A program made the translations under genes and the position numbers. A stretch of 64,000 bases of DNA from a virus (Duplodnaviria; Caudoviricetes). The stretch lies in IMG/VR virus record IMGVR_UViG_3300013103_000006, positions 10,927 through 74,926 of that record; one strand, 5' to 3'. Shown one piece after another: positions 14,502-30,213 of the stretch; within the stretch, counting starts at the first letter, position 1; each line of letters opens with the position of its first letter. The notes under the pieces were generated by a model that ran no database searches, was not told the DNA's origin, and saw only the letters and a program-made list of their open reading frames with translations.

Positions 14502-14595
14502 CTAGTGATATTGTTGCATTTATAGACACATAAATGATAGATTGTGATTGTATATATTGTGGTTATATACATGATATGACTTATGGAATACCAAG

Positions 14596-14653
14596 GTGTT
14601 ACGAAATGCAGTTTACGAATAGTAAACCATTCGGAAGTCGAATTTCGTAACAC
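14596..14653. promoter_or_regulatory. Inverted-repeat element, copy 1
   Basis: GTGTTACGAAAT-N34-ATTTCGTAACAC with inner CGAAT-N8-ATTCG; intergenic, 18 nt before ATG 14672. Confidence 0.85.
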
Positions 14654-14671
14654 GTTAATGGGTGTCATGGT

Positions 14672-15175
14672 ATGATATTCGTAACAGCAGACCATCATTT
14701 CGGACATAAGAACATCATTAAATACTGCGATAGACCATTCAGAGACATTGGGAAAATGAATAAAGCCTTTATACGAAAATGGAACTATACAGTAGGCACA
14801 GATGATACTGTATACTATCTTGGTGATTTTGCACTTACTCCTGTATGGTATGCTCAGAATATCATGGATAAATTGAATGGCTATAAGATTCTCATAAGAG
14901 GGAATCATGATGGTAGCGTTACTAGAATGAAAAGAATTGGATTCCATGAAGTCTATAATGAACCATATCTGTTTGATAAGAACAAATGCATCTTTTTCAG
15001 TCATAATCCAATAGCTAATTCATTTAATGTTAATGTAGGAGTTGATGTATGGGATTATGCTCCGGTAGAATTAAATAAAGCTTTATCTTTAGTTCCAGAT
15101 TATATTTGGAGAAGACATAGAGTGGTGCTATGTGGGCATGTTCATAACAACTGGGTAACGAGGTTCTTAAAATGA
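14672..15175 (+). CDS. Calcineurin-like metallophosphoesterase
   Basis: ADHH, LGDF, GNHD, SH and GHVH motifs. Confidence 0.9.
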   Translation: MIFVTADHHFGHKNIIKYCDRPFRDIGKMNKAFIRKWNYTVGTDDTVYYLGDFALTPVWYAQNIMDKLNGYKILIRGNHDGSVTRMKRIGFHEVYNEPYLFDKNKCIFFSHNPIANSFNVNVGVDVWDYAPVELNKALSLVPDYIWRRHRVVLCGHVHNNWVTRFLK

Positions 15176-15600
15176 ATTGGCTATTCATTCCTATATTTAT
15201 ATTCTGCTGGGTTGTATCATTTCTGTTACATGAGTTAGGTCAAGCTCTCGAAGCCCTCAGACAGGGAAAGAATACAGCAACGATTAAAATATCTAAGAAG
15301 CCTCCATTTATGTATACTCTAGCTGGATATCTACCATATCGTCCACTCTATCTATTAGCTGGAGGAGGATTCGCCGGCACAGTCATGCTCTTGGTTGGTT
15401 TGATTTCATTTATGCTTGGATGCTTTTTGTTTACTGCAGCATTCTTAACTATGGTTATAGTACAGTACCTCTATGCTATCTTTGAAGTATTGTTCATCGA
15501 TATTTTATCAGAACGAGCTTATAACACCTATAGGTTTATTCTATATGGAATGTTAGTTGTGATATCAATTGCTATCTGCAGTATTAGCGGATTAATATGA
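15172..15600 (+). CDS. Membrane protein, degenerate M50 peptidase-like
   Basis: About 4 TM; LLHELGQA (HExxH with second His replaced by Gln), LAGG. Confidence 0.5.
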   Translation: MNWLFIPIFIFCWVVSFLLHELGQALEALRQGKNTATIKISKKPPFMYTLAGYLPYRPLYLLAGGGFAGTVMLLVGLISFMLGCFLFTAAFLTMVIVQYLYAIFEVLFIDILSERAYNTYRFILYGMLVVISIAICSISGLI

Positions 15601-16112
15601 ATGATATACTACTTGCCGGAATATCAGTTCTACATATCGCTCTTTTAATCTTCATGATAGTCAAAACCAAAAACTGGTTTGATAAACTGGATAATCACGT
15701 AGAGGCAATGGATAGACACATTTCATACATTGACTCTCATGTTAAGTCTCTAAGTAGAATAGGAGACAAATATGTATATCTACTTAATTTCTATGCTCTA
15801 GATATTCCTGATTTAAAAATCTATCTGCTTCATGACAAGAAATTCTCAGAGGATGAATTCAGAAGCATGATTCATGAGGCAGTCAAATCTATTGTGAGGA
15901 AAACAAAATCAAGATATGTAGCATTGATTTATAAATACCATGATATTGTTACATATCTAAAGAATAACTTTGGCTTCGAGGAAATCTCTCCTATCATAAA
16001 CTGGGAGATAATCGGAGATGCTAATATCTTGGAAGATAATCAAAGAGTCATGCAATATGATAAGAACTATAAATATTTAAGAGAGTTTTTGAAGGAGGTG
16101 AATAATGAATAA
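15597..16112 (+). CDS. Hypothetical protein with N-terminal TM
   Basis: Coupled ORF; TM then coiled segment. Confidence 0.6.
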   Translation: MNDILLAGISVLHIALLIFMIVKTKNWFDKLDNHVEAMDRHISYIDSHVKSLSRIGDKYVYLLNFYALDIPDLKIYLLHDKKFSEDEFRSMIHEAVKSIVRKTKSRYVALIYKYHDIVTYLKNNFGFEEISPIINWEIIGDANILEDNQRVMQYDKNYKYLREFLKEVNNE

Positions 16113-16407
16113 ACAATATTTCCTACCTATATTCTCTATAGTGTTAGCTATCTTAATGAGCATCAAACTCTTAAAAATGGATGTTGGTATCCTGTCCATT
16201 ATATGCTATATCGCTGAGGTACTAGGGATTACTTTGTTAATTCTTTTCGGGTTGTTTTTGATGATTGCGTCAAGAGCTTTCTCCAAACTTGATACTCTAC
16301 TTAATTCACTTAATCAGAAGTCCTTTGATGACTGGTTCAAGGAATTCGGTAAGATTGAAATCCGATTCGGCGATGGAAATGAGGATTCAACTATTAAATC
16401 TGATTAG
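16105..16407 (+). CDS. Hypothetical membrane protein
   Basis: GGAGGTGA RBS; 2 TM. Confidence 0.65.
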   Translation: MNKQYFLPIFSIVLAILMSIKLLKMDVGILSIICYIAEVLGITLLILFGLFLMIASRAFSKLDTLLNSLNQKSFDDWFKEFGKIEIRFGDGNEDSTIKSD

Positions 16408-16543
16408 AAGAGCAATTGGATATTCGATGATTTGTATCAGTGGCTACTTCCTCAGTAACACAGAGTTCTTTGATGTCTCCAACTTAAATTTCTGGATTGG
16501 TGAATGTTTGTTGTTCTTTGGTATAATAAGCGTAGAATGGTGA
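16265..16543 (+). CDS. Small membrane protein (true start probably at MEMRIQ, further downstream)
   Basis: Hydrophobic C-half fills the gap to 16548. Confidence 0.45.
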   Translation: MRQELSPNLILYLIHLIRSPLMTGSRNSVRLKSDSAMEMRIQLLNLIRRAIGYSMICISGYFLSNTEFFDVSNLNFWIGECLLFFGIISVEW

Positions 16544-16547
16544 GATT

Positions 16548-16898
16548 ATGAATGCATTTCCAATCACTCTCAAAGTGGATGGAAAGACTCCAGCTGATGT
16601 TACGGAAATATTAATTTTTGAAAATCGACCTCATAACATAGTCTATGCATCTTATGTCATAGAGCCAGATGATAAGTTTGGTCAACTATATGTAAAATGT
16701 TCTAATGGCTCAGAATACACAATATCAGCTAGCGGGAAAGTAGATATACATCATGGCAAATGGAGAGTGGTGTCAGAATATAATACACCATTATCAACTA
16801 AAATCTATTATAATAACCAAGAGATAACTGGTGTGAAAAGCATATTCTGGAAAAGTGATGCAAATCTTGATTTGAATGACTTGGAAATTAGTGTATAG
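16548..16898 (+). CDS. Hypothetical protein
   Basis: GGTGAG upstream; no motif. Confidence 0.6.
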   Translation: MNAFPITLKVDGKTPADVTEILIFENRPHNIVYASYVIEPDDKFGQLYVKCSNGSEYTISASGKVDIHHGKWRVVSEYNTPLSTKIYYNNQEITGVKSIFWKSDANLDLNDLEISV

Positions 16899-16924
16899 TT
16901 AGCAAGCTAACTGGAGGAGATGAA

Positions 16925-17815
16925 ATGATATTAATCCTTTGGGATTCTCTCAGAATCGATGCAACTGAACCACTAAAGGGAATATTTAAGGAAGAATCTT
17001 GGTCATCATTTCGGTCTGTAGCAGGATTTACAGCTCCTGTGGTTGCTTCTGTAATTACAGGTAAGACCCCTGAGGAACTAGGTATGAGTAGGGATGTCTC
17101 TGACTTCTGGAAGCCTTTAAATCCTGAAAAAATAGATGATATCCTATTTGACCATTTTGATTCCTACATAAGCCTTGGTAGATTAATAGGCCCAGAAACC
17201 GCATGCTGTCCTCTACCACCATCTAGAAGAGGAAAGTATAAATTCATGCCTCCAATCAAATGGAACGCAGTCTCGAATTGGGATATTGATATATTCAGGT
17301 ATGTTGGTATAAAGTGGAGTATGGCTACAAAGAAATGGTGGGATTTAATATACTGGCATTCCTTTGTAACCCATGGCCCTTGGTCTATATATGACTCTAT
17401 GGGAACTAAAGAGAGCCCAGAGGTAAGAAATTGTGATAGACTCATGCAAAGATTAGCTAGAAGCGATAAGAAAGCTTTATGGGATTGGTATATGAAAGGG
17501 GTTTACTATGCAGCAGAAACCCTTAGAGCTATAAATGATATTTGTGGTGGGATGGAAACTATAATCTGTTTTGCTGATCACGGTGAGGCATTAGGAGAAG
17601 AAGTTAATGGAGAACCTATAACTGGACATTTCCCTGGAATGCATAACCATCCTGTCTTGGGAACCGTGCCAATCTGGATCAATAAGAAGGAGAAGATACC
17701 TAATGATATTTCTCATGTCACTCTTAAAGATTGGGTAGTCAAAATGTATAAGAAATATGAGCTAGATAATTCAGAATATCAGGAATGGAAGGAGAGGAAA
17801 ATTAAATGCAAGTAA
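16925..17815 (+). CDS. Alkaline-phosphatase/sulfatase superfamily enzyme with Thr nucleophile
   Basis: ILWDSLRID, FTAPVVASVITG, FADHGE, TVPIWI. Confidence 0.8.
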   Translation: MILILWDSLRIDATEPLKGIFKEESWSSFRSVAGFTAPVVASVITGKTPEELGMSRDVSDFWKPLNPEKIDDILFDHFDSYISLGRLIGPETACCPLPPSRRGKYKFMPPIKWNAVSNWDIDIFRYVGIKWSMATKKWWDLIYWHSFVTHGPWSIYDSMGTKESPEVRNCDRLMQRLARSDKKALWDWYMKGVYYAAETLRAINDICGGMETIICFADHGEALGEEVNGEPITGHFPGMHNHPVLGTVPIWINKKEKIPNDISHVTLKDWVVKMYKKYELDNSEYQEWKERKIKCK

Positions 17816-17985
17816 AGCGAATCAATGAAAATCATATAGAAATATTATTCGAGGATGAAGGAGAAAGTAAGGTATTCAGGGAGGCTCTCAGATGGAATGA
17901 CAAATATACATTGAAATCTATAATCTGTGAATTAAAAGGATACAGCATACCAGATGAAGAGATTAATGGCGAGGATTGGATATGA
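17806..17985 (+). CDS. 59-aa hypothetical protein missed by the ORF track
   Basis: Translated by hand: MQVKRINENHIEILFEDEG...GEDWI; fills the gap and ends on an ATGA overlap. Confidence 0.6.
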   Translation: MQVKRINENHIEILFEDEGESKVFREALRWNDKYTLKSIICELKGYSIPDEEINGEDWI

Positions 17986-18377
17986 AAAAATTAGATTTCA
18001 TTACTTTCTCAAGCTGGATTCTGATATTAGGAAGCTACATCCTAGCGGGAGGTCTAGGTAGTGTTATCGCTCTCTCGATATTCGGAAATAAGATACTTTG
18101 GCCAGAAATTATATTGGCTACTATAGGAACCATTCTATATACATATAAAGGAATCTCTTATTTAGCAGATGATATCTTCTGGCAGAGTTCTATATCAGCG
18201 TTAGACGGCAGTGTTTCTCTCTGGCTCCATGATAGAGGTAACTCTCTTAACTATTTTAACATCTCGAAGAAAAAATTTGCTGCTATACTTTATCTCTTCG
18301 ATAAAGAAGCATATGAGGTTACAAGTGAGGATTTGGAAAAGATAGAATGTATTAAACAACTGTTCAATAAGTTATAA
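17976..18377 (+). CDS. Hypothetical membrane protein
   Basis: 2 TM segments. Confidence 0.6.
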   Translation: MDMKKLDFITFSSWILILGSYILAGGLGSVIALSIFGNKILWPEIILATIGTILYTYKGISYLADDIFWQSSISALDGSVSLWLHDRGNSLNYFNISKKKFAAILYLFDKEAYEVTSEDLEKIECIKQLFNKL

Positions 18378-18386
18378 GGCGATGAT

Positions 18387-18683
18387 ATGACATCTTGGAT
18401 TTGGACAGATTCATCTACAACTAATAAATGGAAAGATTTAACCCAATCTTGGTCATGTGGAGACACTGTTTATAAATACTACATAACTGGTTCATCAACT
18501 TTAGATCCTGAGGTTATAGTTGCTCCTTATTTAGACAAGAAATATAAATATATCTGCAAGGATAATGTGGAGATAACACTCACAGTCAGAGAGAAAATCA
18601 TCATAGAGGGCATTCTTGGTAAATCAATTGAGGAGTGTACAAAAGAGGATATTGAAACAGCACGGTCATTAATAAAATTATAA
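18387..18683 (+). CDS. Hypothetical protein
   Basis: Co-oriented ORF, no motif. Confidence 0.55.
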   Translation: MTSWIWTDSSTTNKWKDLTQSWSCGDTVYKYYITGSSTLDPEVIVAPYLDKKYKYICKDNVEITLTVREKIIIEGILGKSIEECTKEDIETARSLIKL

Positions 18684-18721
18684 ATGTTTAGCTATATTGT
18701 CTTAAAAAAGGAGGTGAGTAT

Positions 18722-19156
18722 ATGGGAGTGGATGTTGATATTTGGGTAAAGGAAGAAGACCTAAAAAGAATGATTAAAAATGAATTTCTGTGGCATTTCT
18801 TGCCTCTAGTTAAACTTGGCTTCATGAGATGGTATAGATTTGAATGGATGTTTGGATTAGATGATGCTAATTTCTACTATGACAGAGAAGTGACATCTAA
18901 AGATTTGCTTAAACACTTAGCCTCCAATCCAAATGTTGGAAAAAATACAGAGGAAGATGAAGAGACACCCAAGCTTGATAGAGAGTTATGGGCAGAAATA
19001 TTATCGGAATATGATATAGTATTTTGTCCTGATGACCATGATTTCGATAAAGAAGGCTATATCGATCTCATGAAATATTATCGTAATATAGAGCATGAAG
19101 TGGATAGAAATTTTGAGAAATATGCCAATGATGCATATGCGAGTAAAGGTGACTGA
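18722..19156 (+). CDS. Hypothetical acidic protein
   Basis: AAGGAGGTGA RBS. Confidence 0.7.
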   Translation: MGVDVDIWVKEEDLKRMIKNEFLWHFLPLVKLGFMRWYRFEWMFGLDDANFYYDREVTSKDLLKHLASNPNVGKNTEEDEETPKLDRELWAEILSEYDIVFCPDDHDFDKEGYIDLMKYYRNIEHEVDRNFEKYANDAYASKGD

Positions 19157-19433
19157 TGAATACGCTATAATTCGTTACAATAATGGTGAGGATATATGGA
19201 ATGCATTCCAAATGATTAGAGAATTTACACCCAGATTAAAACACTTTACAGTGAGCGATAGCAAAAAACACATAGTCATTCGCTTCTCTTCCTTCGATGA
19301 AAAACAGAAATTCTTAGATACTGTGAAGAAATATGATGATAGGATTTCTTCATTATATGTAGATGGAAGAAGAATTAAGTTGATTAAGGATGGGAGGTTG
19401 ATTATAAGTGAAAATACCAGAAGAAACGCTTAA
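19095..19433 (+). CDS. Hypothetical protein
   Basis: Overlaps both neighbours; real start probably downstream of the track start. Confidence 0.5.
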   Translation: MKWIEILRNMPMMHMRVKVTDEYAIIRYNNGEDIWNAFQMIREFTPRLKHFTVSDSKKHIVIRFSSFDEKQKFLDTVKKYDDRISSLYVDGRRIKLIKDGRLIISENTRRNA

Positions 19434-21255
19434 ATTCTTTGATGGAGAAAAGATTAGAGCTAGAGTGTTTCTTGATAAATACGCATTGCGAGATAAAAGA
19501 GATAATTTATTGGAATGTACTCCAAAGGAAATGTGGAAACGAGTAGCGAGTGCTATAGCATCTGTTGAGAATGAATTTGAAAAATGGAGAAAGGAATTTC
19601 TATGGGCTCTCACTGATTTCAAATTTGTTCCTGGAGGAAGAATAAATTTCGGAGCTGGAAATAATACCGTTAGAAATTCTCTTACTAACTGTTATGTCAT
19701 ACCGATTGAAGATGATTCTATAGAAGGTATATTTGAAGCTATGAAGAAGCAAGCGAGAACTTATTCTTATGGTGGAGGGGTTGGAATAGATATTTCGGCA
19801 TTAAGACCAAGAGGAGCGAAGGTAAATAATACAGCTAAATATTCCACAGGAGCAGCTTCTTTCATGGATATCTTCTCTGAGGTCACTGGCACCATAGGAC
19901 AGTATAATAGACGAGGAGCACTGCTCTTGACTATTGATATTCAGCATCCTGATGTTGAAGAGTTTATAGAAGCTAAATCTGATCCAGAAAGAAGAAATGT
20001 TAGGTTTGCTAATGTTTCGGTCAAGATTAGAAATGCATTTTTAGAAGCTGTCGTGAAGGATAGAGATTGGCTTCTTTGGTATCCTGATGTAACTGATATA
20101 CGATATTCCTCTGAAGCCATAAGAGTCAAGGACATCTATGAGTGCTTCGAGCATCCAGAGGAAACATTCTTTCATGTAGATGGAGAAGAATTTATAAGAG
20201 TTAAGAAAGTTTATAAGATAGTTAAGGCTAAAGAACTATGGGAAAAGATAGTAAAATATGCATGGGCTACTGCAGAGCCAGGAATATTATATTGGGACAC
20301 AGTCAAGAGGTATTCTAACTCAGAATATTTCCAGCCAATAATAACTTGTAATCCTTGTTCTGAGTTGCCCTTGCCAGCATATGGAAATTGTTGCTTGGGT
20401 CATATAAATTTATCAAAGATAGTTATTAATCCATATAAAAATCCAAAAATTAATTGGAAACTCTTAGAACGTTTAGTGCAAATTGGAGTTAGATTCCTAG
20501 ATGACGTTATAACTTATTCTGTTGGTAAACATCCTCTACCTGAGCAGAATAAAGTAGCTGAGGAAGGTAGGCGTATAGGCTTAGGCATAACTGGATTAGC
20601 AGATTTCCTGATGAGAATGAAGCTAAGATATGATTCTAATGAAGCATTAGAGCTTGTAGATAAAGTTATGGATTTCATTAAAAACAAAGCATATATAACA
20701 TCAGCCCAGTTAGCAAGAGAGAAAAATCCATTTCCGAAATTTAAATTAAATGAAATCATGAAATCAGAATTTATTAAGAATTTATCAGAGGAAGTCAAAG
20801 AGGAAATTAGAAAATATGGCTTGAGGAACATAACTATTCTAACGGTAGCTCCAGTCGGAACCGGTTCTATCCTAGCAGGAACCACATCTGGCATTGAGCC
20901 ACTTTTTGCAAAGAAATATCTTAGGAGATCGGAGAGCTTAAAAGAGAAAAAATTCTATCTACATGACCACTCTCTGAGGGAGCTAATTAAATTATATGGA
21001 ATAGATAATCTTCCAGACTATGTAGTTAGTGCTTATGAGATAGACCCATTTAAGAGAGTTAAGATGCAAGCTATTGTTCAAAGACATGTCGATTCGTCTA
21101 TATCATCTACAGTGAATTTGCCAAAAGACTTTCCTGCAGAGAAGCTCAACGACCTGTTTTTATATGGCTGGAAGGAAGGACTAAAGGGCTTAACTATCTA
21201 TAGAGAAGGAAGTAGAGAAGGAATATTAATATCAATGGATAAAGGAGGTGAATAA
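19408..21255 (+). CDS. nrdJ: Class II (B12-dependent) ribonucleotide reductase
   Basis: PGGRI, NC, GGGVG, NPCSE, IGLGITGLAD, APVGT, GIEP, GLKGLTIYR. GTG start; no ATP cone. Confidence 0.92.
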   Translation: MKIPEETLKFFDGEKIRARVFLDKYALRDKRDNLLECTPKEMWKRVASAIASVENEFEKWRKEFLWALTDFKFVPGGRINFGAGNNTVRNSLTNCYVIPIEDDSIEGIFEAMKKQARTYSYGGGVGIDISALRPRGAKVNNTAKYSTGAASFMDIFSEVTGTIGQYNRRGALLLTIDIQHPDVEEFIEAKSDPERRNVRFANVSVKIRNAFLEAVVKDRDWLLWYPDVTDIRYSSEAIRVKDIYECFEHPEETFFHVDGEEFIRVKKVYKIVKAKELWEKIVKYAWATAEPGILYWDTVKRYSNSEYFQPIITCNPCSELPLPAYGNCCLGHINLSKIVINPYKNPKINWKLLERLVQIGVRFLDDVITYSVGKHPLPEQNKVAEEGRRIGLGITGLADFLMRMKLRYDSNEALELVDKVMDFIKNKAYITSAQLAREKNPFPKFKLNEIMKSEFIKNLSEEVKEEIRKYGLRNITILTVAPVGTGSILAGTTSGIEPLFAKKYLRRSESLKEKKFYLHDHSLRELIKLYGIDNLPDYVVSAYEIDPFKRVKMQAIVQRHVDSSISSTVNLPKDFPAEKLNDLFLYGWKEGLKGLTIYREGSREGILISMDKGGE

Positions 21256-21906
21256 TTGGCATTATTTGATTTATTTAAGAAGAAGGATTTAATAGAGATT
21301 TCAATGGAAGATTTGGAAAGAGTTGCTAAAGAAACAGCTCAAGCTTGGGAGGATGTCATAAGAGAAACTACTAAATCATATCTCGAACAATTTAAACAAG
21401 AAGTGAAAAAATATATCGATAAGAAGCTAGCATCATGCAAGAAAAAGAAGAAACCGAGTAGAAGATTTGAAGTTGTTCGTGATGAGTATAGAAAGCATCC
21501 AAATAAAGAAATTAAACTACCAACCAGAGCTACAGCTAACTCAGCTGGATATGACTTTTATTCTAATGAAACTATTATGATTCCGCCAGGCTCTTATCAT
21601 GTCTTCTGGACAGATGTTAAAGTAAAATTAGAGAAAGATGAGTTTCTCATGATAGTTCCTCGCTCATCAGTTGCTACCCAAAAGAACCTGATATTAGCGA
21701 ATTCAGTTGGAATCATAGACGCTGATTATTATAATAATCCCGATAATGATGGTAATATTGGCATATGGTTGATTAACACGTCTAATAACCAGACTGCAAC
21801 TATAAAAGAAGGAGAAAGAATAGCTCAAGGAATAATTTTGAAATATTTTGCCTCTGATAAAACCCAAGGTAAAAGAGGTGGAGGTTTTGGCTCTACGGGT
21901 AGGTAA
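21256..21906 (+). CDS. dut: Trimeric dUTPase with N-terminal helical extension
   Basis: SAGYD, PRSS, GIIDADY, ERIAQ, RGGGFGSTG; TTG start after GGAGGTGA. Confidence 0.93.
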   Translation: MALFDLFKKKDLIEISMEDLERVAKETAQAWEDVIRETTKSYLEQFKQEVKKYIDKKLASCKKKKKPSRRFEVVRDEYRKHPNKEIKLPTRATANSAGYDFYSNETIMIPPGSYHVFWTDVKVKLEKDEFLMIVPRSSVATQKNLILANSVGIIDADYYNNPDNDGNIGIWLINTSNNQTATIKEGERIAQGIILKYFASDKTQGKRGGGFGSTGR

Positions 21907-22516
21907 TTCTAAAGGATACTTCAATTTGACTGAGCTAATAATATCTAGTAACTGGAATACTCTAATAGTCTTGGATTCTTGTTCATATAAACTATTCAAA
22001 CAGGAGTGCACTCTTAATGGACTTCTCTATAGAGCACAGAGTAAAGGTCATGACACCACTACGTTCTATGAAAGCCTGCCATCTCTGAAATATGTGACTC
22101 TATATTCTGCTAATGAACAGTTATGTAAAAACCGAGCTATAAAGAGAAAATTTAAGGAGGTAATACCGAGTAAGAATTCTTATATCTGGGATAATCTTTT
22201 AGAGGCTCAGTCTATAGATGAGCGTATCATTATTCAAACTTTGCTTCCAAGACTACCAAATCAAGGAGAATATGCTGATTTATGGTTTAAATTAAAGGAA
22301 AAGCATAAGCTAGACACCACAAAATTCTATGATATTATTGAAAAGCAAAATATAAAAACAAACGACGTATTAGCCTCTAATTTACGAGTAGCACTTCAAG
22401 CGATAGGGAAAAATATAGATAAATTAGAAAGACCAGTAGTTATAACGTCTAGTCATGGTTATCCTTCTAAGCAAGAGGAGGATATTCATATTGTCCCTTG
22501 GTTTATTGTTGATTAA
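21848..22516 (+). CDS. Degenerate alkaline-phosphatase-fold protein
   Basis: WNTLIVLDSCSY, SKGHDT, VVITSSHG resemble LIVLDACRYD / SxGxxT / ITADHG with metal ligands lost. Confidence 0.5.
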   Translation: MPLIKPKVKEVEVLALRVGNSKGYFNLTELIISSNWNTLIVLDSCSYKLFKQECTLNGLLYRAQSKGHDTTTFYESLPSLKYVTLYSANEQLCKNRAIKRKFKEVIPSKNSYIWDNLLEAQSIDERIIIQTLLPRLPNQGEYADLWFKLKEKHKLDTTKFYDIIEKQNIKTNDVLASNLRVALQAIGKNIDKLERPVVITSSHGYPSKQEEDIHIVPWFIVD

Positions 22517-22531
22517 AATACGTGATGCTTC

Positions 22532-22723
22532 ATGCTATGCCCTAAATGTCATTCTCAAACTACTGTTGAAAAAACTATCACTAAACAAGATAGAGTATTT
22601 AGATACAGGAGATGTAAGACATGTGGATATGGATTTACTACTATCGAAGAAATATCAAATGGACAGGATTTCAAGTTCATACTAAGACGCATAAAGAGTA
22701 TCGTTGATCAGGTGGATGTATGA
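22532..22723 (+). CDS. NrdR N-terminal-like Zn ribbon protein
   Basis: MLCPKC...T.V...RYRRCKTCGYGFTTIE; no ATP cone. Confidence 0.75.
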   Translation: MLCPKCHSQTTVEKTITKQDRVFRYRRCKTCGYGFTTIEEISNGQDFKFILRRIKSIVDQVDV

Positions 22724-23832
22724 AGCCATCGACATCTATCATTATCAAGACTAACAGGAAAGAGAGAGATACTTCATTTACTCAGTGGAAGAAAAAACTA
22801 TCTCAGGGAAAGATTCAACAATCATTGCTATGGGAGGATAAGGATCAGGTATTCGAAAATAATATCATGAAGTCAAGGAGTTTCATAGAACCAACCCTTC
22901 GGTCTTTAACCGAACAAGAATATGATGATTTTGAAGTTGTCTTAGTTTATAGAGGCATTAGTCATAAGACTCTTGAGCTCGCAAATAGCTACCGGCATTA
23001 CCTCAATTTAAAGATAGTACCAGAGAAGCATTCAATATGGCATGAACTTGGAGATGAATATTGCACTATATCAAATGCAATCAATACAGGAATCATATAT
23101 GCTGATGGAGAGCTGTTGATATCAACAGATGACTGTTCTATATTTCCACCTAAGTTAGTAGGAGAGATGGCTAATCTGTATTTTAAGAAGATGAAATACA
23201 GCATACCGCCATACATTAAATACTCGCTCTATAACCCTGCAAAATCCAATCTTGTTCAGGAAGTTAAAATCTCTGCTAATAAGCTAGATGGATATACAAA
23301 AATGAAAGATAAATGGGAGATTCATGAATGGGATGATAATGCAGGGTTATTGAAGGAAACTACTCTATATAACAAGAAACCAGGTGATATCTTCTATCCA
23401 ACATATGGCTATTGCTTCTCAGTTAGCCTAGAAGAAGCTCTCTATATTAATGGATTCGATGAGACGTATGATGGAGCAATGCATGGAGAAGACGGTGATT
23501 TTGGAGAAAGACTATCAGTCGTTAGTCCCTATAAAAGAGTAGTGACAGAAAATAAAATCTATTTCTTTGGACACAAATACTCTAATGTCAAGAACTATAA
23601 ACTAGTAAGAGATAATAGAAAATTTAAAGAGTTTATTGGTCAGAGGCCATATCCTCCTGATAAGATAGTTGCCAATATTTGGAGACCTACTCAGGAGCAA
23701 CTGAATGCTTATAGGGAATGGCATCTTAAGATGTATGGTCAACTAGACCCGAACTGGGATAAATGCAAGAATGTACCACTCTTTAGACTAAAATCTTTAC
23801 GTAAACGGCTAAGAACCATTGGAAAATTGTGA
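22720..23832 (+). CDS. GT2/GT7-like (GT-A fold) glycosyltransferase
   Basis: FEVVLV, NAINTG, STDDC, INGFDE...HGED. Confidence 0.85.
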   Translation: MKPSTSIIIKTNRKERDTSFTQWKKKLSQGKIQQSLLWEDKDQVFENNIMKSRSFIEPTLRSLTEQEYDDFEVVLVYRGISHKTLELANSYRHYLNLKIVPEKHSIWHELGDEYCTISNAINTGIIYADGELLISTDDCSIFPPKLVGEMANLYFKKMKYSIPPYIKYSLYNPAKSNLVQEVKISANKLDGYTKMKDKWEIHEWDDNAGLLKETTLYNKKPGDIFYPTYGYCFSVSLEEALYINGFDETYDGAMHGEDGDFGERLSVVSPYKRVVTENKIYFFGHKYSNVKNYKLVRDNRKFKEFIGQRPYPPDKIVANIWRPTQEQLNAYREWHLKMYGQLDPNWDKCKNVPLFRLKSLRKRLRTIGKL

Positions 23833-23856
23833 TAGTCATAGACCTGTTTCTATGTT

Positions 23857-23898
23857 CCATATTTGGAAAGCTATTTATAAATCAAATTCCAAATATGG
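23857..23898 (+). promoter_or_regulatory. TATA box flanked by a perfect 12-bp inverted repeat
   Basis: CCATATTTGGAA-N18 (contains TTTATAAA at 23874-23881)-TTCCAAATATGG. Confidence 0.7.
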
Positions 23899-23905
23899 TA
23901 AAAAA

Positions 23906-23962
23906 TGTTACGAAATTAAAGGCCACTGGTATTATACCATTCGAAGGCTTAATTTCGTAACA
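23906..23962. promoter_or_regulatory. Inverted-repeat element, copy 2
   Basis: TGTTACGAAAT-N35-ATTTCGTAACA; intergenic, upstream of ATG 23989. Confidence 0.85.
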
Positions 23963-23988
23963 CCTTTAGATTCTCTAGGAGGAAGAGT

Positions 23989-24711
23989 ATGTTAGAGCAT
24001 CTTGATATCCAAAATATTGGAGATTTAAGAATAATATTTAGGCCAAACTCTAATGATAGAAAAATAATAAGAGAAATTCTTATGGCAGACTCTTATTTCC
24101 TGAAAAAATTCAAAACAAATGAGAATATAAGAGTCATAGATATCGGCTCTCATATAGGAATCTTCTCGTTAGGTATAAAGAAACACTGCCCTAACGCTAA
24201 TGTAATAGGCTATGAGCTGGATGAAGAAAACTATATCCTCTCTTTAATAAACAACGGGCTAAATAATCTGGATATCAAATTTTATAATCTAGCTGTCACC
24301 CCGTCGAACATCAAACCAGTATCAAGACTCTATCATAATCATAGAAATAAAGGTTCTTATTGTCTCTTATATAACGGTGAAGCACAAACGAATGTAAATA
24401 CCATAGAGATAGATAGAATATTGAAAGATAAATGTGATATTTTAAAGATGGATATAGAAGGTGGTGAGTTTCCGATTCTAGAAAATATAGATTTAGAATG
24501 GCTGGCAAATCAAGTAAATTATTTTATGATAGAATTCCATGATGATTTTGAATCTAAGACAAAATACAAGCCCTTGAAATATAAATCGAGTGTAGACGCT
24601 ATCAATGATTTAATCAAACATTTCAAAATTCTGGCTTATAATAAATATACTGATTTACTCTCTGTTTTGGTATTTAAGTCTAGACGATATAGGAATGAGG
24701 AAAATGAGTGA
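23989..24711 (+). CDS. FkbM-family methyltransferase
   Basis: VIDIGSHIG, GYE, ILKMDIEGGE. Confidence 0.88.
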   Translation: MLEHLDIQNIGDLRIIFRPNSNDRKIIREILMADSYFLKKFKTNENIRVIDIGSHIGIFSLGIKKHCPNANVIGYELDEENYILSLINNGLNNLDIKFYNLAVTPSNIKPVSRLYHNHRNKGSYCLLYNGEAQTNVNTIEIDRILKDKCDILKMDIEGGEFPILENIDLEWLANQVNYFMIEFHDDFESKTKYKPLKYKSSVDAINDLIKHFKILAYNKYTDLLSVLVFKSRRYRNEENE

Positions 24712-24994
24712 AGGTAAGACTATTAAAGATGCTACAAAAGAATTTTATGAATCCACTTTATTCAAGTATATTAAGAATCAGATTGGCGAAGAGAAAGCAT
24801 ATGATTTAGCTAGCTGGCTAGTTCATTATGCTATGATTACATCGACACTCATTGCAGCAAAAGACATAACTCTTGACCATGCACTGCTTATACTTCATGG
24901 TGAAAAGCTCTCTTTGATTACCAAAGCTCTTAGCACTGTACACAAGAAACTCTCGAAATCAAATGATGAAAAGTGGGATAGATATATTTGGTAG
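24695..24994 (+). CDS. Hypothetical helical protein
   Basis: Fills the gap in the operon. Confidence 0.6.
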   Translation: MRKMSEGKTIKDATKEFYESTLFKYIKNQIGEEKAYDLASWLVHYAMITSTLIAAKDITLDHALLILHGEKLSLITKALSTVHKKLSKSNDEKWDRYIW

Positions 24995-25658
24995 TCATAT
25001 GAATGACAAACAGTTTGTTTTGGGTATAGGCACAGGTAGATGTGGAACTAAATCTCTAGCTGTATTACTAGATGCTCAGAAAGATGTAACTGTTTATCAC
25101 GAGCTAGCAGACAGAAGTACTATAAGGCATTATGGAGATAAAATATTGCCATGGATTCCAGACTATAACAAAGCGATTCTTAGACTAGATAGTCTGAGGA
25201 GGATTCCTGGTAGAGTGGTAGGTGATGTAGCATTCTATTATCTGAACTATATCTACTTCTTCAAGGAGCATCTGCCAAACCTAAAGATAATAGTGATGGA
25301 AAGAGAAAAGGATAAAGTAGTTTCTTCTTATATAGCTAAGACTCCCGGTAGGAATCACTGGTGCTCATATGAATCTGAATGCTGGAAATCAGGGAGATAC
25401 CATGAGGACAGATGGGATAAGGCTTATCCTAAAATAGATTATGCAAAGACAAAAGAAGAGGCTATAGGTATTTACTGGGAGCTCTATAAAAAGAGAGTGG
25501 ATGCTCTAGAACTAGAATTCAAAGATGATATAATTCGCATCAACGTTAACGATCTTAATAAAGAGACTACTCAAGAAAAGCTTTTTAATTTCATTGGATT
25601 AGATAATTGGAAACATATCTGTGTTCATGTTAACTGGATATTAACAAGGCCATCATGA
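24963..25658 (+). CDS. PAPS-dependent sulfotransferase-fold protein (likely start 24999)
   Basis: GIGTGRCGTKSL (5'-PSB loop), HE, IIVMERE...VVSSY (3'-PB-like). Confidence 0.8.
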   Translation: MMKSGIDIFGSHMNDKQFVLGIGTGRCGTKSLAVLLDAQKDVTVYHELADRSTIRHYGDKILPWIPDYNKAILRLDSLRRIPGRVVGDVAFYYLNYIYFFKEHLPNLKIIVMEREKDKVVSSYIAKTPGRNHWCSYESECWKSGRYHEDRWDKAYPKIDYAKTKEEAIGIYWELYKKRVDALELEFKDDIIRINVNDLNKETTQEKLFNFIGLDNWKHICVHVNWILTRPS

Positions 25659-26341
25659 AAATTGTTTATACACTATCTGATGTGAATAATTTAAAACAAT
25701 ATCTTGGTATATCACTAAGAAGCTTATCGAGATTTGTTAAAAACAAAGATATAATTATAATAATCACCCCACCATATGGAAACTTAGAAGAAGAGTTTAA
25801 TCAGTATGAGCTAATTAAAAGACCAAATTTAATCAGAAAGTATCCATATGCTAATAAAATATACTGTTGTGAGATTGAAGAGAAAGAATTAATGTATCTT
25901 GATGTAGATACAATTATCAATAAAAATATACTAGAGCTACTAAATGGAGATTTTGATGTTTTCTGTAGAATAGGAAGCAAATCAAAAGAGTATACAAAAG
26001 GAGATTATCCGGCTCTGCTAAAACAACTTAATCTCAGGTTTACTCCTATGTATAACACAGGATTCATTATATTTAAAAACTACACTCATAATTTAATATT
26101 AAAAGACTGGAAGAAGTATACTGAGAATCTAAGGAAAGGAATATGGCATATTAGACACTCCTATGTTCATGAGCAGTTTGCTTTTTCTATGTCGGTGTCA
26201 AATAAAACGGTAAAGGAAATGACAGGAAAAGAGCATTACTTCATGTGGAAGCCTGATTCCGCAAATAGATTTGATTCATATGTCATTCACTATGGTCATT
26301 TGAAAAATAAAATGATAGATGATATTAAGAGGATAGTATGA
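25655..26341 (+). CDS. GT-A glycosyltransferase, GT8-like
   Basis: YLDVD (DxD), YNTGF, HEQ, final HY. Confidence 0.75.
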   Translation: MKIVYTLSDVNNLKQYLGISLRSLSRFVKNKDIIIIITPPYGNLEEEFNQYELIKRPNLIRKYPYANKIYCCEIEEKELMYLDVDTIINKNILELLNGDFDVFCRIGSKSKEYTKGDYPALLKQLNLRFTPMYNTGFIIFKNYTHNLILKDWKKYTENLRKGIWHIRHSYVHEQFAFSMSVSNKTVKEMTGKEHYFMWKPDSANRFDSYVIHYGHLKNKMIDDIKRIV

Positions 26342-26883
26342 AAGAATTTTGGAATAAACGATATAAGAGTAATCCAGAGAAAGGAAGTGGGCCAGGAAGT
26401 AGAGGAGAGTATGCTTTGAAGAAACAAGAAATAGTGAGAAATATCATCAAAGAAAAGGAAATAAAATCAGTGTTAGATTTAGGTTGTGGCGACTTATACT
26501 GGATAAAAGATTTGAATATTCAACACTATACAGGAGTTGACTACTCTGATGTTATTATTGAGAGAAATAAACAACTAAAACCTGAATGGAACTTTATGGT
26601 CTTTGATTTCTCGAAAGAGGATTTAGATTTAAAAGCAGACCTAGTCCTACTCATTGATGTTTTGATTCATCAAAGAGAAAAGAAGTCATATTTACAGGTT
26701 TGGAAAAATACATTAAATAATGCTAAAAGAGTTATCCTTGTATCTAGCTGGGAGAAAGAGCCAGTCTCTCACTATGAAAATATATTCTTTCACGAGACTA
26801 TTCATGATTTATTAAAGGATTTTGATTATAAGATACTCTATAAATATAGAGAAAGCGCGTTAGCAATTGTCAATCTAAAATAA
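26338..26883 (+). CDS. Class I SAM-dependent methyltransferase
   Basis: SGPGS, VLDLGCGD, YTGVD. Confidence 0.88.
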   Translation: MKEFWNKRYKSNPEKGSGPGSRGEYALKKQEIVRNIIKEKEIKSVLDLGCGDLYWIKDLNIQHYTGVDYSDVIIERNKQLKPEWNFMVFDFSKEDLDLKADLVLLIDVLIHQREKKSYLQVWKNTLNNAKRVILVSSWEKEPVSHYENIFFHETIHDLLKDFDYKILYKYRESALAIVNLK

Positions 26884-28312
26884 ATCCTTCAATTTTAACG
26901 AAATATTCATTAGAATCTGTTATTCTTTCTGTGTAGTTTCTAACTCCTATAGTTATAGAATCTTCCATATTAGCAAGTTGATATCCGGTTTTTGGAGTGA
27001 TAGTTAGAGTGTTATAGCCAAATGAAGTGTCATAATAATGAGGTCTACCAAGAATTTGATACATCTCTGCTACCGCTCCTGGCCTAATATGGCTTCTTAA
27101 AAGATTTCTTTGACTCTGGTTAAGCCATGTTTCTATTACCACAGAATAATCATTTCTATCCCAACGAGAACACCAACAATCGAAGGATATATTTGTTTGA
27201 CTTGGATTATTAACAGCTACAGCTGTGTTCCCGCCAATTTCATCATCAAGAGAATTAAATAATTTATACCACAGTATTAAAGAATCAGGAGTATAATTTG
27301 GATCTAAATAATCAGCTTTTACTTCTGCAGCGGTAAGTGCTTTATTGAATATCTTTACATTAGCTATAGTTCCATACGGAACCGTTGTGTAGAAATTTTT
27401 TCCGATTGTGATTTTGCCACTAGCATCTATTACACTTCCTGAAGTATCTTCATCGATGAATTCGCCATTCAAATAAAGCGTTCTAGTGGTGGAATTAGCT
27501 TCCCATACCCCGACTACATGGTACCATGAATTAAAATTACCCGAACCTAATAACAAAGCATTTCCATCTAAGAAAAGTTTTATTTTAAAAGTAGTAGTAG
27601 TTGAATCTTTAAGATGAATACCAAGGTCAAACGATTTCCCAACCAATTGCCAGCTAGCCCACGCTGGATCGTGAGAATTATATAAGGGTTTAACCCAACA
27701 AGAGAGCGTAATGCCATGAGAAGTTAAATCCAAATCTACTGAATCTGAGGATTCAAGATATTCCGTTCCTCCAGTAAAATAATAAGCTGCATTTGGAATA
27801 GAGACTGTCATATCGCCAGGAGTCAAATCCCCATCAACCTCAAAGGTCATATCTGCGGAAGTTGGAGAGCCCCAAGAACCTGATGAATACAATAACCAAG
27901 CACCACCAGAATAGTTACCGGATGAAGACTTCATATAGAAGCTTACTTGATTAGAGGAATCAGCAGGAGAAGAAGGTGTGATTACAATCGCATATTGGGT
28001 AGAGGGCTGGAGGCGGATAGATGGGAGATTAAACGTATACCAAGAATAGTCAGTAGGAAGAGAGGCAGAGGAAAAAGTCTGAGATGTTAGGACTGTTCCT
28101 GTAGGTTTACCGTCATCATCGACGGTCTCAATTGATATTGTTATATCTCCGGGACTGCCATATCTAGCAACTCTAAACTTTACTGCTCTTAATATCCATC
28201 TTGTATTAAGACCTATCGCACCGATAGTAAATGTCTGAGCAAATTTCCAGTCTGTGGTGCTAAGCCCTTTATGCCCATCATATTCATAATAGTATTCTAT
28301 CACCTGAGTCAT
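26870..28312 (-). CDS. Virion adhesin: beta-sandwich plus LamG plus C-terminal distal-tail-like domain
   Basis: LamG signatures (ITLSCWVK, WYHVVGV, LYLNG, IFNKALT); C-terminal ~100 aa paralogous to 28309..28635. Confidence 0.75.
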   Translation of the reverse strand: MTQVIEYYYEYDGHKGLSTTDWKFAQTFTIGAIGLNTRWILRAVKFRVARYGSPGDITISIETVDDDGKPTGTVLTSQTFSSASLPTDYSWYTFNLPSIRLQPSTQYAIVITPSSPADSSNQVSFYMKSSSGNYSGGAWLLYSSGSWGSPTSADMTFEVDGDLTPGDMTVSIPNAAYYFTGGTEYLESSDSVDLDLTSHGITLSCWVKPLYNSHDPAWASWQLVGKSFDLGIHLKDSTTTTFKIKLFLDGNALLLGSGNFNSWYHVVGVWEANSTTRTLYLNGEFIDEDTSGSVIDASGKITIGKNFYTTVPYGTIANVKIFNKALTAAEVKADYLDPNYTPDSLILWYKLFNSLDDEIGGNTAVAVNNPSQTNISFDCWCSRWDRNDYSVVIETWLNQSQRNLLRSHIRPGAVAEMYQILGRPHYYDTSFGYNTLTITPKTGYQLANMEDSITIGVRNYTERITDSNEYFVKIEGFILD

Positions 28313-28635
28313 AATTTAATACCTCTGATTTTTATCTTGAACGTATCAGGAGTTAATAGGGTTTCAGAATAATTTTTAACAGCTATTTTCGTTCTAGGTC
28401 TAAGACTATATAAGCCGGAGCCAGACACTGGAGTTAAAAATATTGTATTACCAGATGAATATGTAGTATCAACAAATTTAGGCTCACCAAGAATATCATA
28501 TTGTTTTGCAACAGCTCCTGGAGTAATATTATCGAGTAAATTATCTCGACTGTCCTTATCTGTAATGAATTCAACTATAACCTCATGTTCTTCTTCATCC
28601 CAACGAGAGCATTTGACATATGCTATAGTACTCAT
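28309..28635 (-). CDS. Small tail protein, possible distal-tail component
   Basis: CSRWD, PGAVA...ILG.P...DT, I.VKNYSE shared with the neighbour's C-terminus. Confidence 0.55.
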   Translation of the reverse strand: MSTIAYVKCSRWDEEEHEVIVEFITDKDSRDNLLDNITPGAVAKQYDILGEPKFVDTTYSSGNTIFLTPVSGSGLYSLRPRTKIAVKNYSETLLTPDTFKIKIRGIKL

Positions 28636-30014
28636 TTCTCTATCACCATATTATATCCTTTGAATATAGTCATAGATGCAGTAGTAAATGACTTATCATC
28701 TCCGGTGTCTTCTGTTGTTCCATCTACTTCCTGAGCTCTCGCTCGAAAATGATAAGTCGTGCTAGGAGAAAGGCCTGTAAGACTATAGGAAAAAGTACCA
28801 GTTGAAGTTAGCGTTTGGGTTGGTGTAGAGTTTCCATACGATGTAGTTAATCCCCACTCAAACCAAACATTAACCTGGGATACGCCTTCCATCTTATCTA
28901 AAGACCCGTTAAGAGTAGCATATGTCTTGCCGATGTTTGTAGCCTCTAGAGTAGATACTGCAATATTAGCGGTAGTAACTTGAGTCCAATCACCAAAACT
29001 ATCCCAAGTTGGCTCGGTTGATGAATATTTAGCTATGAAAACCCATGGTGTATATAATTCAATATGCGATAAAGAGCCTCTATAACCTCCATAACCTATA
29101 CAATAATCAGGTGAACCATGATACGCCCATGAATATCCTGGAGATCGTGTATCATGCGTTTCTTCACCATAATAATTATATGCTCCAGTTGTAGAGGGAA
29201 CATTTGATAAGGTATCAGAAGCGAGAGTTGAGGAATAATCATTAGAATATAAATTAGCGGTAATTTCGCTGGAAGTTACACAAATCTCATTTTTAAACCA
29301 TGTAGAGGTTGTGAATGTAACTGTATGATAGGAAGAAGAATAACCAGTTCCGGATACTCTTGAAGCAACCTTCCATGCAAATTTAGTTGAAGATGCACCA
29401 ACATCAGTATCGCAGCACCAAACAGTGTATATACCATTATTTGGTGATGCATTTGTTGTATCTGCTGCTGTGCCTTGAAGACCTTCGCTTCCATAATTAC
29501 CATAATCCCAAGTATTAATTCTGACCTTAAAGATTTGTCTATAAGGTATTGAAACATTAGATATACTACGATAGCGCCCCCAACCATATTTACCATCCGT
29601 TCGTTGAACTGATGTATAAGATGATGTATAATCTGTATCCCATGATTCAAAGAAAATAAATGTATCACTGCCAGAAGAATACTGACTAGCAGCTGAATTA
29701 CCTATAAACATGTATATTGTATCGGAGCCATCAGAAGGTAATTTCACCCAAATAATCGCCTGAGTGGCATCATATTCTTCTATCCACTGAGATAATTGAG
29801 TTGCTGTAGAAGGATTATTAGTCGTACCAAACCTAATATCATCTGGAAAGTTTTCACAGTGATTATCACAATAAACCTCACCATTAGATGGGTTATCAGT
29901 GCCAGTTCCGGAGTAAACAGTCAGCTTCATTTGATAGTTCGCACTGACATTAGCTGAATCTGTAATGTCCAGTTGTTTATAATATGCCCATCCAGTGCTA
30001 GGATTAAGAGCCAT
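28632..30014 (-). CDS. DUF2341-type virion protein with C-terminal FN3 domain
   Basis: W.YYKQL.I...NF.DDIRF...WIE...IWVKLP; GLSPSTTYHFRARA; Ser/Thr-rich. Confidence 0.78.
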   Translation of the reverse strand: MALNPSTGWAYYKQLDITDSANVSANYQMKLTVYSGTGTDNPSNGEVYCDNHCENFPDDIRFGTTNNPSTATQLSQWIEEYDATQAIIWVKLPSDGSDTIYMFIGNSAASQYSSGSDTFIFFESWDTDYTSSYTSVQRTDGKYGWGRYRSISNVSIPYRQIFKVRINTWDYGNYGSEGLQGTAADTTNASPNNGIYTVWCCDTDVGASSTKFAWKVASRVSGTGYSSSYHTVTFTTSTWFKNEICVTSSEITANLYSNDYSSTLASDTLSNVPSTTGAYNYYGEETHDTRSPGYSWAYHGSPDYCIGYGGYRGSLSHIELYTPWVFIAKYSSTEPTWDSFGDWTQVTTANIAVSTLEATNIGKTYATLNGSLDKMEGVSQVNVWFEWGLTTSYGNSTPTQTLTSTGTFSYSLTGLSPSTTYHFRARAQEVDGTTEDTGDDKSFTTASMTIFKGYNMVIEK

Positions 30015-30046
30015 AATTATTTCATATCTCTGTGAGTGACATCAAG

Positions 30047-30103
30047 TGTTACGAAATACACATTGACTAATATAATACTATTCGAACCCTTCATTTCGTA
30101 ACA
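30047..30103. promoter_or_regulatory. Inverted-repeat element, copy 3
   Basis: TGTTACGAAAT-N35-ATTTCGTAACA; intergenic, upstream of the minus-strand ATG at 30014. Confidence 0.85.
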
Positions 30104-30213
30104 GCCTAGGAGAGATATAACAAATTTGATATACAGTGCCTCTCTCCTTGTCAAAGGTCAAAATCTTTACAGAAATGCCTATGTTTGGTCTAAAATCGGT
30201 ATGTGTCAGTGAC

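Follow-up and report, generated by a model that had tools for sequence, protein, structure and literature searches.

What is the role of an inverted repeat of about 57 bp that stands three times, with identical ends, between the genes of a single virus? The question is raised by a stretch of 64,000 nucleotides of a tailed virus (positions 10,927 to 74,926 of the IMG/VR record IMGVR_UViG_3300013103_000006), called here the window, in which each copy of the repeat consists of two 11-nt arms in inverted order and of a spacer that carries short boxes of its own. We tentatively incline to read the element as a cassette that controls transcription at the level of DNA and to which a virus-specific factor of dyad symmetry binds. 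The copies may together form a single class of intergenic repeat, set in those few gaps of the genome that bear promoters, for the joint control of several transcription units, and this we propose with the same reserve.

The repeat is sharply defined. A search for two 11-nt arms with a gap of 30-40 nt, controlled by 100 dinucleotide-preserving shuffles, gave exactly three matches in the window and none in the shuffles, and the matches fall at 14597, 23906 and 30047, where the initial annotation had placed them; the gene map bears out its statement that all three are intergenic. The six arms are identical and make up all six occurrences of the commonest 11-mer of the window; when one mismatch was allowed, the window yielded no further paired copy and only two unpaired look-alikes. 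The arms are 34-35 bp apart (45-46 bp from centre to centre), and the termini of the element read TG...CA. When the spacers are anchored on the right arm, 13 of their 34 columns are invariant and 21 vary, the maximum reached in 20,000 shuffles being 9, and the pentamer ATTCG lies exactly 8 nt 5' of the right arm in the three copies, so that the shared core described in the initial annotation is confirmed. Its observation that copy 1 is symmetric also holds, since CGAAT mirrors ATTCG there in an arm-8-box-8-box-8-arm layout; the self-palindromy of the spacers is not significant. Between copies the spacers diverge by 40-60% while the arms do not differ at all, and the identity of six arms next to 21 variable columns out of 34 points to a constraint on the sequence of the arms and not on their mere pairing.

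The orientation of the core bears on the nature of the binder. Compared with copy 2, copy 3 shows the 13 invariant columns when read in the same direction and only 4 when flipped, and both genes flanking copy 3 lie on the minus strand, the core keeping the orientation that it has in copy 2. The initial annotation had drawn from this an argument for recognition as double-stranded DNA; the argument stands for copy 3 against copy 2, and copy 1 is neutral, fitting either orientation equally well (13 and 13 invariant columns). Service of the opposite strand by copy 3 and the symmetry of copy 1 would both be tolerable to a dyad-symmetric DNA binder, which is indifferent to orientation.

The placement of the copies with respect to predicted promoters is equally regular. 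In the three cases a TATA-like box (Table 1) begins 31-34 nt ahead of the element in the direction of the downstream gene, from which start sites are predicted 1-4 nt ahead of the element; these boxes are the best TATA boxes in their gaps, and a purine-rich stretch resembling a transcription factor B recognition element (BRE) precedes that of copy 2. Each box lies inside a perfect palindrome of its own, specific to that copy. Perfect inverted repeats of this kind number 85 in the 64 kb, and because about 0.08 is expected per 60 nt, their presence at the three copies is not due to chance. Both features had been noticed in the initial annotation: the boxes are present three times out of three, about one base away from the positions that it implied, and the different inverted repeats around them are perfect ones.

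Table 1. Coordinates of the repeats, of the features around them and of the candidate factors (positions in the window, or in the relative named)
Feature	Coordinates	Strand	Details
Copy 1	14597..14652	.	56 bp; arms 14597-14607 and 14642-14652
Copy 1, inner boxes	CGAAT 14616-20; ATTCG 14629-33; central box 14621-28		symmetric
Copy 2	23906..23962	+	57 bp; arms 23906-16 and 23952-62, extendable to 14 bp
Copy 2, boxes	ATTCG 23939-43; central AT-rich box 23930-37
Copy 3	30047..30103	+	57 bp; arms 30047-57 and 30093-103
Copy 3, boxes	ATTCG 30080-84; central AT-rich box 30071-78
Palindrome at copy 1	14549..14571	+	8 bp, perfect; encloses TATA-like box 14563-70; predicted start about 4 nt before copy 1
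Palindrome at copy 2	23857..23898	+	12 bp, perfect; encloses strong TATA-like box 23874-81; predicted start about 2 nt before copy 2
Palindrome at copy 3	30108..30148	-	8 bp, perfect; encloses TATA-like boxes 30134-27 and 30120-13; predicted start about 1 nt before the element on the minus strand
G1-A	7611-7674	+	relative G1
G1-B	29793-29856	+	relative G1
G1-C	25742-25806	-	relative G1
G1-D	68492-68555	+	relative G1
G2-a	15741-15803	+	relative G2
G2-b	10896-10960	-	relative G2
G9-a	4531-4594	-	relative G9
Block after copy 1	14672..16898	+	metallophosphoesterase, small membrane and unknown proteins; largely absent from relatives
Block after copy 2	23989..26883	+	FkbM methyltransferase, sulfotransferase, glycosyltransferase, S-adenosylmethionine (SAM) methyltransferase
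Block after copy 3	26870..30014	-	DUF2341 protein, 108-amino-acid protein, LamG-type protein
Candidate factor 1	14064..14501	+	145 amino acids; DUF2116-like C4 Zn ribbon at the C-terminus and a basic tail; adjoins copy 1 on its upstream side
Candidate factor 2	2..352	+	C-terminal 116 amino acids of an early protein of about 150
Candidate factor 3	22532-22723		NrdR-type Zn ribbon, 63 amino acids, conserved in G1

The mechanism we propose rests on this geometry. The TATA-like box 31-34 nt upstream of each copy would be used by the TBP, TFB and RNA polymerase of the host, and the palindrome would then span about +2 to +58. A dimer or a tetramer sitting on both identical arms, and also on the inner boxes that resemble them at a spacing of 14 nt from the arms, would block or license the recruitment of the polymerase, the blocking mode being that of archaeal repressors bound over the start site. 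Three units would come under this control: the block of phosphoesterase and membrane genes, that of glycan modification and that of the distal tail fibres. The arms would carry the specificity, and the factor would most likely be encoded by the virus.

Copy 1 has some peculiarities of its own. The first codons of the phosphoesterase gene, 26 nt past the element, contain a 9-mer resembling the right arm (14678..14686, plus strand). The region of the left inner box (14613-14630) can pair with 14667-14684 (18 nt, 83%), a segment that holds the start codon of the phosphoesterase gene and repeats 9 bases of the right arm, and this possible alternative pairing is found in copy 1 only. A small open reading frame of 14 codons inside the element was considered and set aside, being lost in the other copies.

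Is the repeat a private feature of this virus? Searches with the terminase and the capsid protein led to a small IMG/VR clade at 67-75% identity, of which four members were used: G1, a 69-kb record that is 98% complete, G2 and G3, fragments of 26 kb and 40 kb, and G9, a contig of 7 kb. Gene order is conserved with these relatives, at 30-80% protein identity. Arms of the window type are absent from all relatives scanned, and at the places syntenic to copies 1-3 the genes of the relatives abut without a gap. The genes directly after copies 1 and 2 have no counterpart in G1, and compared with G3, the segment made up of the Zn-ribbon gene, copy 1 and the phosphoesterase gene has the look of an insertion. 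With a covariance model of the three window copies, two weak matches were obtained in G1, both intergenic, which are palindromes of 56-68 nt with quite different arms; copy 1 and G1-B share a core 12-mer. Motif and profile searches then extended the set to seven copies in three contigs, all intergenic (Table 1), three of them found before they joined the profile (E 0.003 to 0.09), with none in the sampled 40 kb of G3. In the reverse direction, a covariance model built from the seven copies of the relatives alone recovers the second window copy with 17.4 bits (E 0.022 over 250 kb). Profiles of sequence only cross-detect weakly (E 0.15-0.74), their top matches still falling on the elements, which occupy less than 0.5% of the searched DNA. 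On these similarities the repeats of the window and those of the relatives are probably homologous.

The alignment of the ten copies shows what is kept and what is exchanged. A conserved hexamer (purine-C-N-purine-purine-T) is followed, after two bases, by a T-rich or AT-rich box, and the ATTCG box is found in six of the ten. In the relatives the arms make up an inverted repeat of 11 bp with a single mismatch between its two sides, which continues into a run of T at the left arm and a run of A at the right one; the right arm hardly varies among the three viruses, and the left arm has two forms that pair with overlapping parts of the right one. Copies of one genome share one arm type. When the two arm types are aligned on ACGA/TCGT, three pairs differ on both sides and stay complementary, and two positions are paired only in the window type. 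So the inverted symmetry appears to be under selection, and likewise the arm sequence within a lineage. Arms that are invariant in a genome and are replaced as matching pairs between viruses are what is expected if a site and its factor co-evolve.

The copies of the relatives are diverse in their setting. G1-A, G1-B and G2-a are oriented as the genes on either side, and a conserved leader of about 45 nt with a ribosome-binding site and an ATG follows the right arm in G1-A and G1-B. G1-C is a whole unit reversed between rightward genes, with a decayed leader. G1-D, G9-a and G2-b are syntenic, between divergent early promoters, G2-b being inverted with respect to the other two. Ahead of the convergence point, the final rightward glycan genes are preceded by G1-B in G1 and by copy 2 in the window, a synteny that is approximate. 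In all, two of the ten copies are antisense to their neighbours and two or three lie between divergent promoters. Two other readings of the relatives' units were rejected: as coding sequence, since their translations resemble each other only over stretches of identical DNA and the substitutions show no synonymous bias; and as inverted type IIS sites (CGTCTC) in the arms, whose overhangs are incompatible and which are lost in the window type. Of the checks suggested in the initial annotation, the scan of relatives and hosts thus failed for the exact arms and succeeded for probable homologues with other arms in three contigs, and as to covariation, three arm pairs have changed on both sides in a matching manner, with no such change in the inner hairpins of copies 1 and 2. 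Two features could not be seen at that stage: the probable place of the element in a repeat family that related viruses share under other arms, and the AT-rich centre with BRE-like boxes on its flanks.

The operator, or regulon switch, put forward in the initial annotation is partly supported: it agrees with the symmetry, with arms that stay invariant while the spacers drift, with the occurrence in either orientation relative to genes and with starts predicted at 1-4 nt ahead of the element. The sequences show the repeats, their symmetry and placement, their probable homologues and the compensatory changes of the arms; where transcription starts, that a protein binds and which protein it is, we infer. 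Several points weigh against the control site. The starts are predicted from AT-rich boxes in AT-rich DNA, and in the relatives a clear TATA box is missing at 30 nt ahead of the copies. Conservation in these copies is weaker in the left arm than in the right one, which fits a simple symmetric operator badly, and G1-D and G9-a stand 140-290 nt away from the divergent early promoters, not over a start. The arm centre distance of 45-46 bp is not a whole number of helical turns. The scores that join the window copies to those of the relatives (E 0.15-0.74 by sequence only, 0.022 by covariance model) are weak. Finally, compensatory changes in the arms around a conserved unpaired core would be expected equally of a structured RNA.

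This last point leads to an explanation that we consider unlikely, namely that the element acts as RNA, either as the first ~57 nt of an mRNA or as an intercistronic hairpin, with a role in 5'-end protection, in processing or in the binding of a protein to RNA, the conserved loop then being what is recognised. With transcription predicted to start 1-4 nt ahead of the left arm, the stem would stand at the very 5' end of the transcript. The hairpins are stable (z-scores of -3.4 to -5.5), the arms covary between lineages around a conserved loop core, a small hairpin just downstream of copies 1 and 2 contains the ribosome-binding site or start codon, and the virus encodes an Alba-domain protein. 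The stems of the relatives contain 10 G-T against 6 A-C pairs, as RNA pairing would favour, but the excess is weak and comes mostly from one repeated position. Pairing alone would have permitted the drift of the six arms, which are identical in sequence, and the transcript of copy 3 would carry the complement of the core, so that the three mRNAs would have no loop motif in common. G1-C is antisense to its flanking genes, G1-D and G9-a lie between divergent promoters, the inner hairpins of copies 1 and 2 are in different registers and do not covary, and the window has no match in Rfam at gathering thresholds. A DNA-level site explains more of the observations than an RNA does: the symmetry, the indifference to orientation, the invariance of the arms, their paired replacement and the position at predicted starts.

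If the element acts as DNA, it could also be a promoter in itself. In this explanation, the central AT-rich box would be the TATA box, the conserved hexamer two bases before it the BRE, and transcription would start at the outer end of an arm; because the arms are identical and the box is central, firing could go both ways, the arms being initiator-proximal and upstream motifs for a virus factor. This explanation seems to us rather improbable. Counted from the start of the central box, the outermost base of the right arm is 31 nt away, and the left arm mirrors this, 31 nt being the usual distance from TATA to start in archaea. BRE-like CGAAT boxes flank the central box, and the most conserved block of the family, read on the other strand, matches in 7 of 8 bases the BRE end of the canonical promoter of these viruses. 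The leader with ribosome-binding site and ATG directly after the right arm of G1-A and G1-B points in the same direction, as do the 58-bp repeats of the virus HF2, which hold BRE, TATA and a start in the conserved motif and are in part bidirectional. However, the central boxes are weak as TATA in copy 1 and in the G1-type copies, and inside the copies the 15-mer BRE/TATA consensus of these viruses finds no match, even with 3 mismatches allowed. In copies 2 and 3 the BRE that looks canonical points to the left, which suits copy 3 and is antisense for copy 2, and in the common orientation of the family copy 3 and G1-C would fire against their flanking genes. Far better TATA boxes stand just upstream of the elements. 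We prefer the flanking-TATA geometry over the central-box one because it uses these best boxes of the gaps, correctly spaced in three cases out of three.

A selfish or recombinogenic DNA, such as a miniature inverted-repeat element or an exchange site or hotspot for accessory cassettes, is in our opinion a quite improbable explanation, although the elements stand at breaks of synteny where the genes of the relatives abut gapless, occur as whole units in both orientations and have TG...CA termini. No target-site duplications accompany copies 1-3, and the likeness of their flanks stops 1-4 nt past the arms. Identical arms around spacers that are 40-60% diverged are the opposite of what a recent burst of transposition would leave. 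Thus the duplications, the near-identity over the full length and the copies elsewhere that mark miniature inverted-repeat transposable elements or repetitive extragenic palindromes are all wanting, as are the short crossover spacer and the nearby recombinase of lox, FRT, dif, attC or res sites. The recombination site offered as an alternative in the initial annotation is disfavoured on these grounds: the arms are 34-35 bp apart and not 6-8, a distance unlike that of any core recombination site, and the copies are not interchangeable junctions in the relatives. Its statement that the window holds no recombinase agrees with our scan, in which about 65 proteins of the window matched no family of recombinases, integrases or transposases, several small open reading frames of the structural module and about 11 kb outside the window lying beyond that scan. 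Furthermore, 11 identical bases are too few for efficient homologous exchange, and syntenic copies have been kept across viruses with only 50-70% protein identity.

The searches beyond the clade agree with this view, as no copy with the core was found in the viral contigs, metagenome records or species genomes searched. The exact element has no match in 2.9 million viral contigs of IMG/VR. In 241 million JGI metagenome records a 20-base arm pattern occurs at 29 loci, none with the core or with protein homology to the window. A search with the core and right arm returned five chance matches only. One genome for each of 185,579 GTDB species yielded three bacterial singletons with other spacings, and a megablast of the region against GenBank phages gave no match. 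A scan of IMG/VR with the arm pattern of the relatives returned the known copies of G1 and G2 and three high-GC contigs, which were judged to be chance. Nothing in these searches indicates that a host carries the repeat or that the site belongs to a regulon of the host.

If a DNA-level control site is the reading to be pursued, which protein could bind it? Three candidates are encoded in the window (Table 1). The Zn-ribbon protein at 14064-14501 has no homologue in the relatives and a single fragmentary match in 5.8 billion proteins; by these comparisons it is, like the window-type arms, lineage-specific. The protein at 2-352 is conserved in G1 and G2 at 30-58% identity (orthologues L117:8453-8908 and L124:1979-2443). 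The model of its G1 orthologue (mean predicted local distance difference test score, pLDDT, of 78) consists of one cyclin repeat, whose best superpositions are with repeat 1 of TFIIB, of Brf2 and of the Pyrococcus TFB, with Z of 13-14 and a root-mean-square deviation of 2.2-2.8 Å over about 100 residues; ordinary cyclins score Z of about 12.3, so that the preference for TFIIB is slight. Searches of Pfam and of PDB sequences returned nothing for this protein, and it is the comparison of folds alone that gave the result, by which the label 'TFB-like' of the initial annotation gains a structural basis. The third candidate is an NrdR-type Zn ribbon. G1 also has an open reading frame of 43 amino acids with a double-CxxC Zn ribbon (L118:5558-5689, plus strand), directly before the inverted copy G1-C.

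These structural data suggest a more daring model, to which we give little credence: the virus would encode its own single-repeat TFB-like factor, and the palindromic cassette would be the class of promoter under its positive or negative control. The central AT-rich box would be surrounded by four CGAA(A/T) boxes of BRE type, and the arms would co-evolve with a fast-evolving factor. If true, this would be the archaeal-virus counterpart of the phage sigma factors or of promoter reprogramming of the MotA type, and a TFIIB-like early protein as the partner of the site would represent a new viral route to redirect the basal transcription machinery of archaea.

The genome in which the control sites would act is, by its sequence, most of that of an uncultivated archaeal tailed virus of about 70-75 kb. 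Its genes run rightward up to 26.9 kb and leftward beyond. The rightward part encodes the replication proteins (family B DNA polymerase, archaeo-eukaryotic primase, RadA/KaiC-like ATPase, ERCC4 nuclease) as well as a C5 methylase, a ribonucleotide reductase, a dUTPase and a set of glycan enzymes; the leftward part encodes terminase, portal, major capsid protein, tape measure protein, tail proteins and an ATP-dependent ligase fusion. By its capsid protein the virus comes nearest to haloarchaeal tailed viruses, and by its terminase to ANMV-1. The Alba-domain protein lies at 59828-60070 on the minus strand, between the portal and large terminase genes, and its nearest clusters (chromatin- or RNA-binding) are archaeal, from Thermoproteota, Nitrososphaerota and Bathyarchaeota. 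The window has strong ribosome-binding sites of the GGAGG type. A bacterial reading was rejected, sigma-70-like sites being as frequent as expected (74 against 74.4) and hairpin terminators rarer than in shuffles. As to the blocks behind the copies, that of copy 2 is absent from the relatives, which have other glycan genes there instead, and that of copy 3 is likely to encode tail fibre or receptor-binding proteins.

Other signals were found in these genomes. The classical euryarchaeal BRE/TATA 15-mer CGAAAGGTTTATATA is exact at 63802-63788 (minus strand) and recurs, exact or nearly so, at 62608-62594 (minus strand), at 67.4-68.9 kb in G1 and at 10.5-12.4 kb in G2, thus marking the early control region of the virus and of its relatives; two promoters of this type in G2 face apart as a perfect palindrome. 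A 12-13-mer, GATAAACTTGATG, occurs five times (2300 and 49800 on the minus strand, 11488, 13567 and 41164 on the plus strand), far above chance frequency; each occurrence falls within a coding region, with both strands represented and with no relation between the contexts. Hint/intein signatures were detected in the glycosyltransferase at 11457-13766, in the head-module protein at 47528-49741 and in the portal protein at 57567-59831, one of the three regions carrying a LAGLIDADG domain; the virus thus has several inteins.

To our knowledge, gene regulation in archaeal tailed viruses is almost unexplored beyond a few haloviruses, and no virus of this clade has been cultivated. A short and sharply defined cis-element that marks several transcription units offers a handle on the temporal programme of such a virus. 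It predicts that the phosphoesterase/membrane block, glycan modification and the distal tail fibres are co-regulated, all plausibly functions of host range or of the surface. The element could also serve as bait in the search for its regulator, and the exchange of arms between lineages as a natural specificity swap for the study of how site and factor co-evolve.

Does the element resemble any system already described? Two bacterial ones come to mind. The promoter-early stem-loop cassettes of T4-type phages are a proposed case of module shuffling, by homologous recombination over longer identities, and the plasmid-prophage N15 has dispersed palindromic centromere sites that need a ParB-type protein. 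Both share with the element short repeated units, palindromic or in the form of promoter hairpins, that are dispersed or border accessory genes and affect expression; both are bacterial, and no ParB-type protein was found in the window.

The archaeal regulator MsvR of methanogens recognises TTCGTA-N4-TACGAA, generalised as TTCG-N7-9-CGAA, in boxes that lie over the start site or the BRE/TATA region and cause repression by exclusion (Isom et al. 2013, PMC3729527). Both hexamer half-sites are contained exactly in the window-type arms, and several boxes per promoter, partial direct repeats included, are found in both systems. Here, however, the half-sites are in the opposite order and 40 nt apart, the TTCG-N7-9-CGAA unit occurs in none of the three window copies and the host may not be a methanogen, to judge from the nearest clusters of the Alba protein. 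The likeness to MsvR sites, seen at the level of sequence motifs, may serve as a lead only.

The closest parallel comes from haloarchaeal viruses. HF2 and other haloferacalesviruses carry class I (58 bp) and class II (29 bp) repeats; the class I repeats, seven in HF2, are intergenic, conserved in sequence and position within the genus, and contain BRE, TATA and a start in a conserved downstream motif, their promoter activity having been measured, and virus-encoded factors, possibly Zn-finger proteins, were proposed as their binders (Russ, Pfeiffer and Dyall-Smith 2021, PMC8707807). The likeness to the element is manifold: both belong to archaeal tailed viruses and consist of a handful of repeats of about 57-58 bp at the heads of transcription units, and the three copies of the window and the seven of the relatives are, as in HF2, restricted to intergenic DNA with several copies per genome. 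In both, invariant and variable blocks alternate, and an AT-rich middle box is followed about 30 nt downstream by a conserved motif. As to conservation in relatives, the element has probable homologues with a shared core and replaced arms, some of which stand at corresponding places in the genome; some of the repeats of HF2 are bidirectional. The HF2 repeats are not palindromes, however, whereas here the ends are perfect inverted repeats that change as pairs between lineages, and the two have no sequence relationship beyond a loose likeness of the HF2 start-site motif to the right arm of the relatives. The starts were measured in HF2 and are here predicted from sequence, and a separate and better TATA box lies upstream here. 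By this comparison, the element is most likely closest to the class I repeats of HF2, of which it would represent a novel palindromic variant in a small family of an uncultivated clade.

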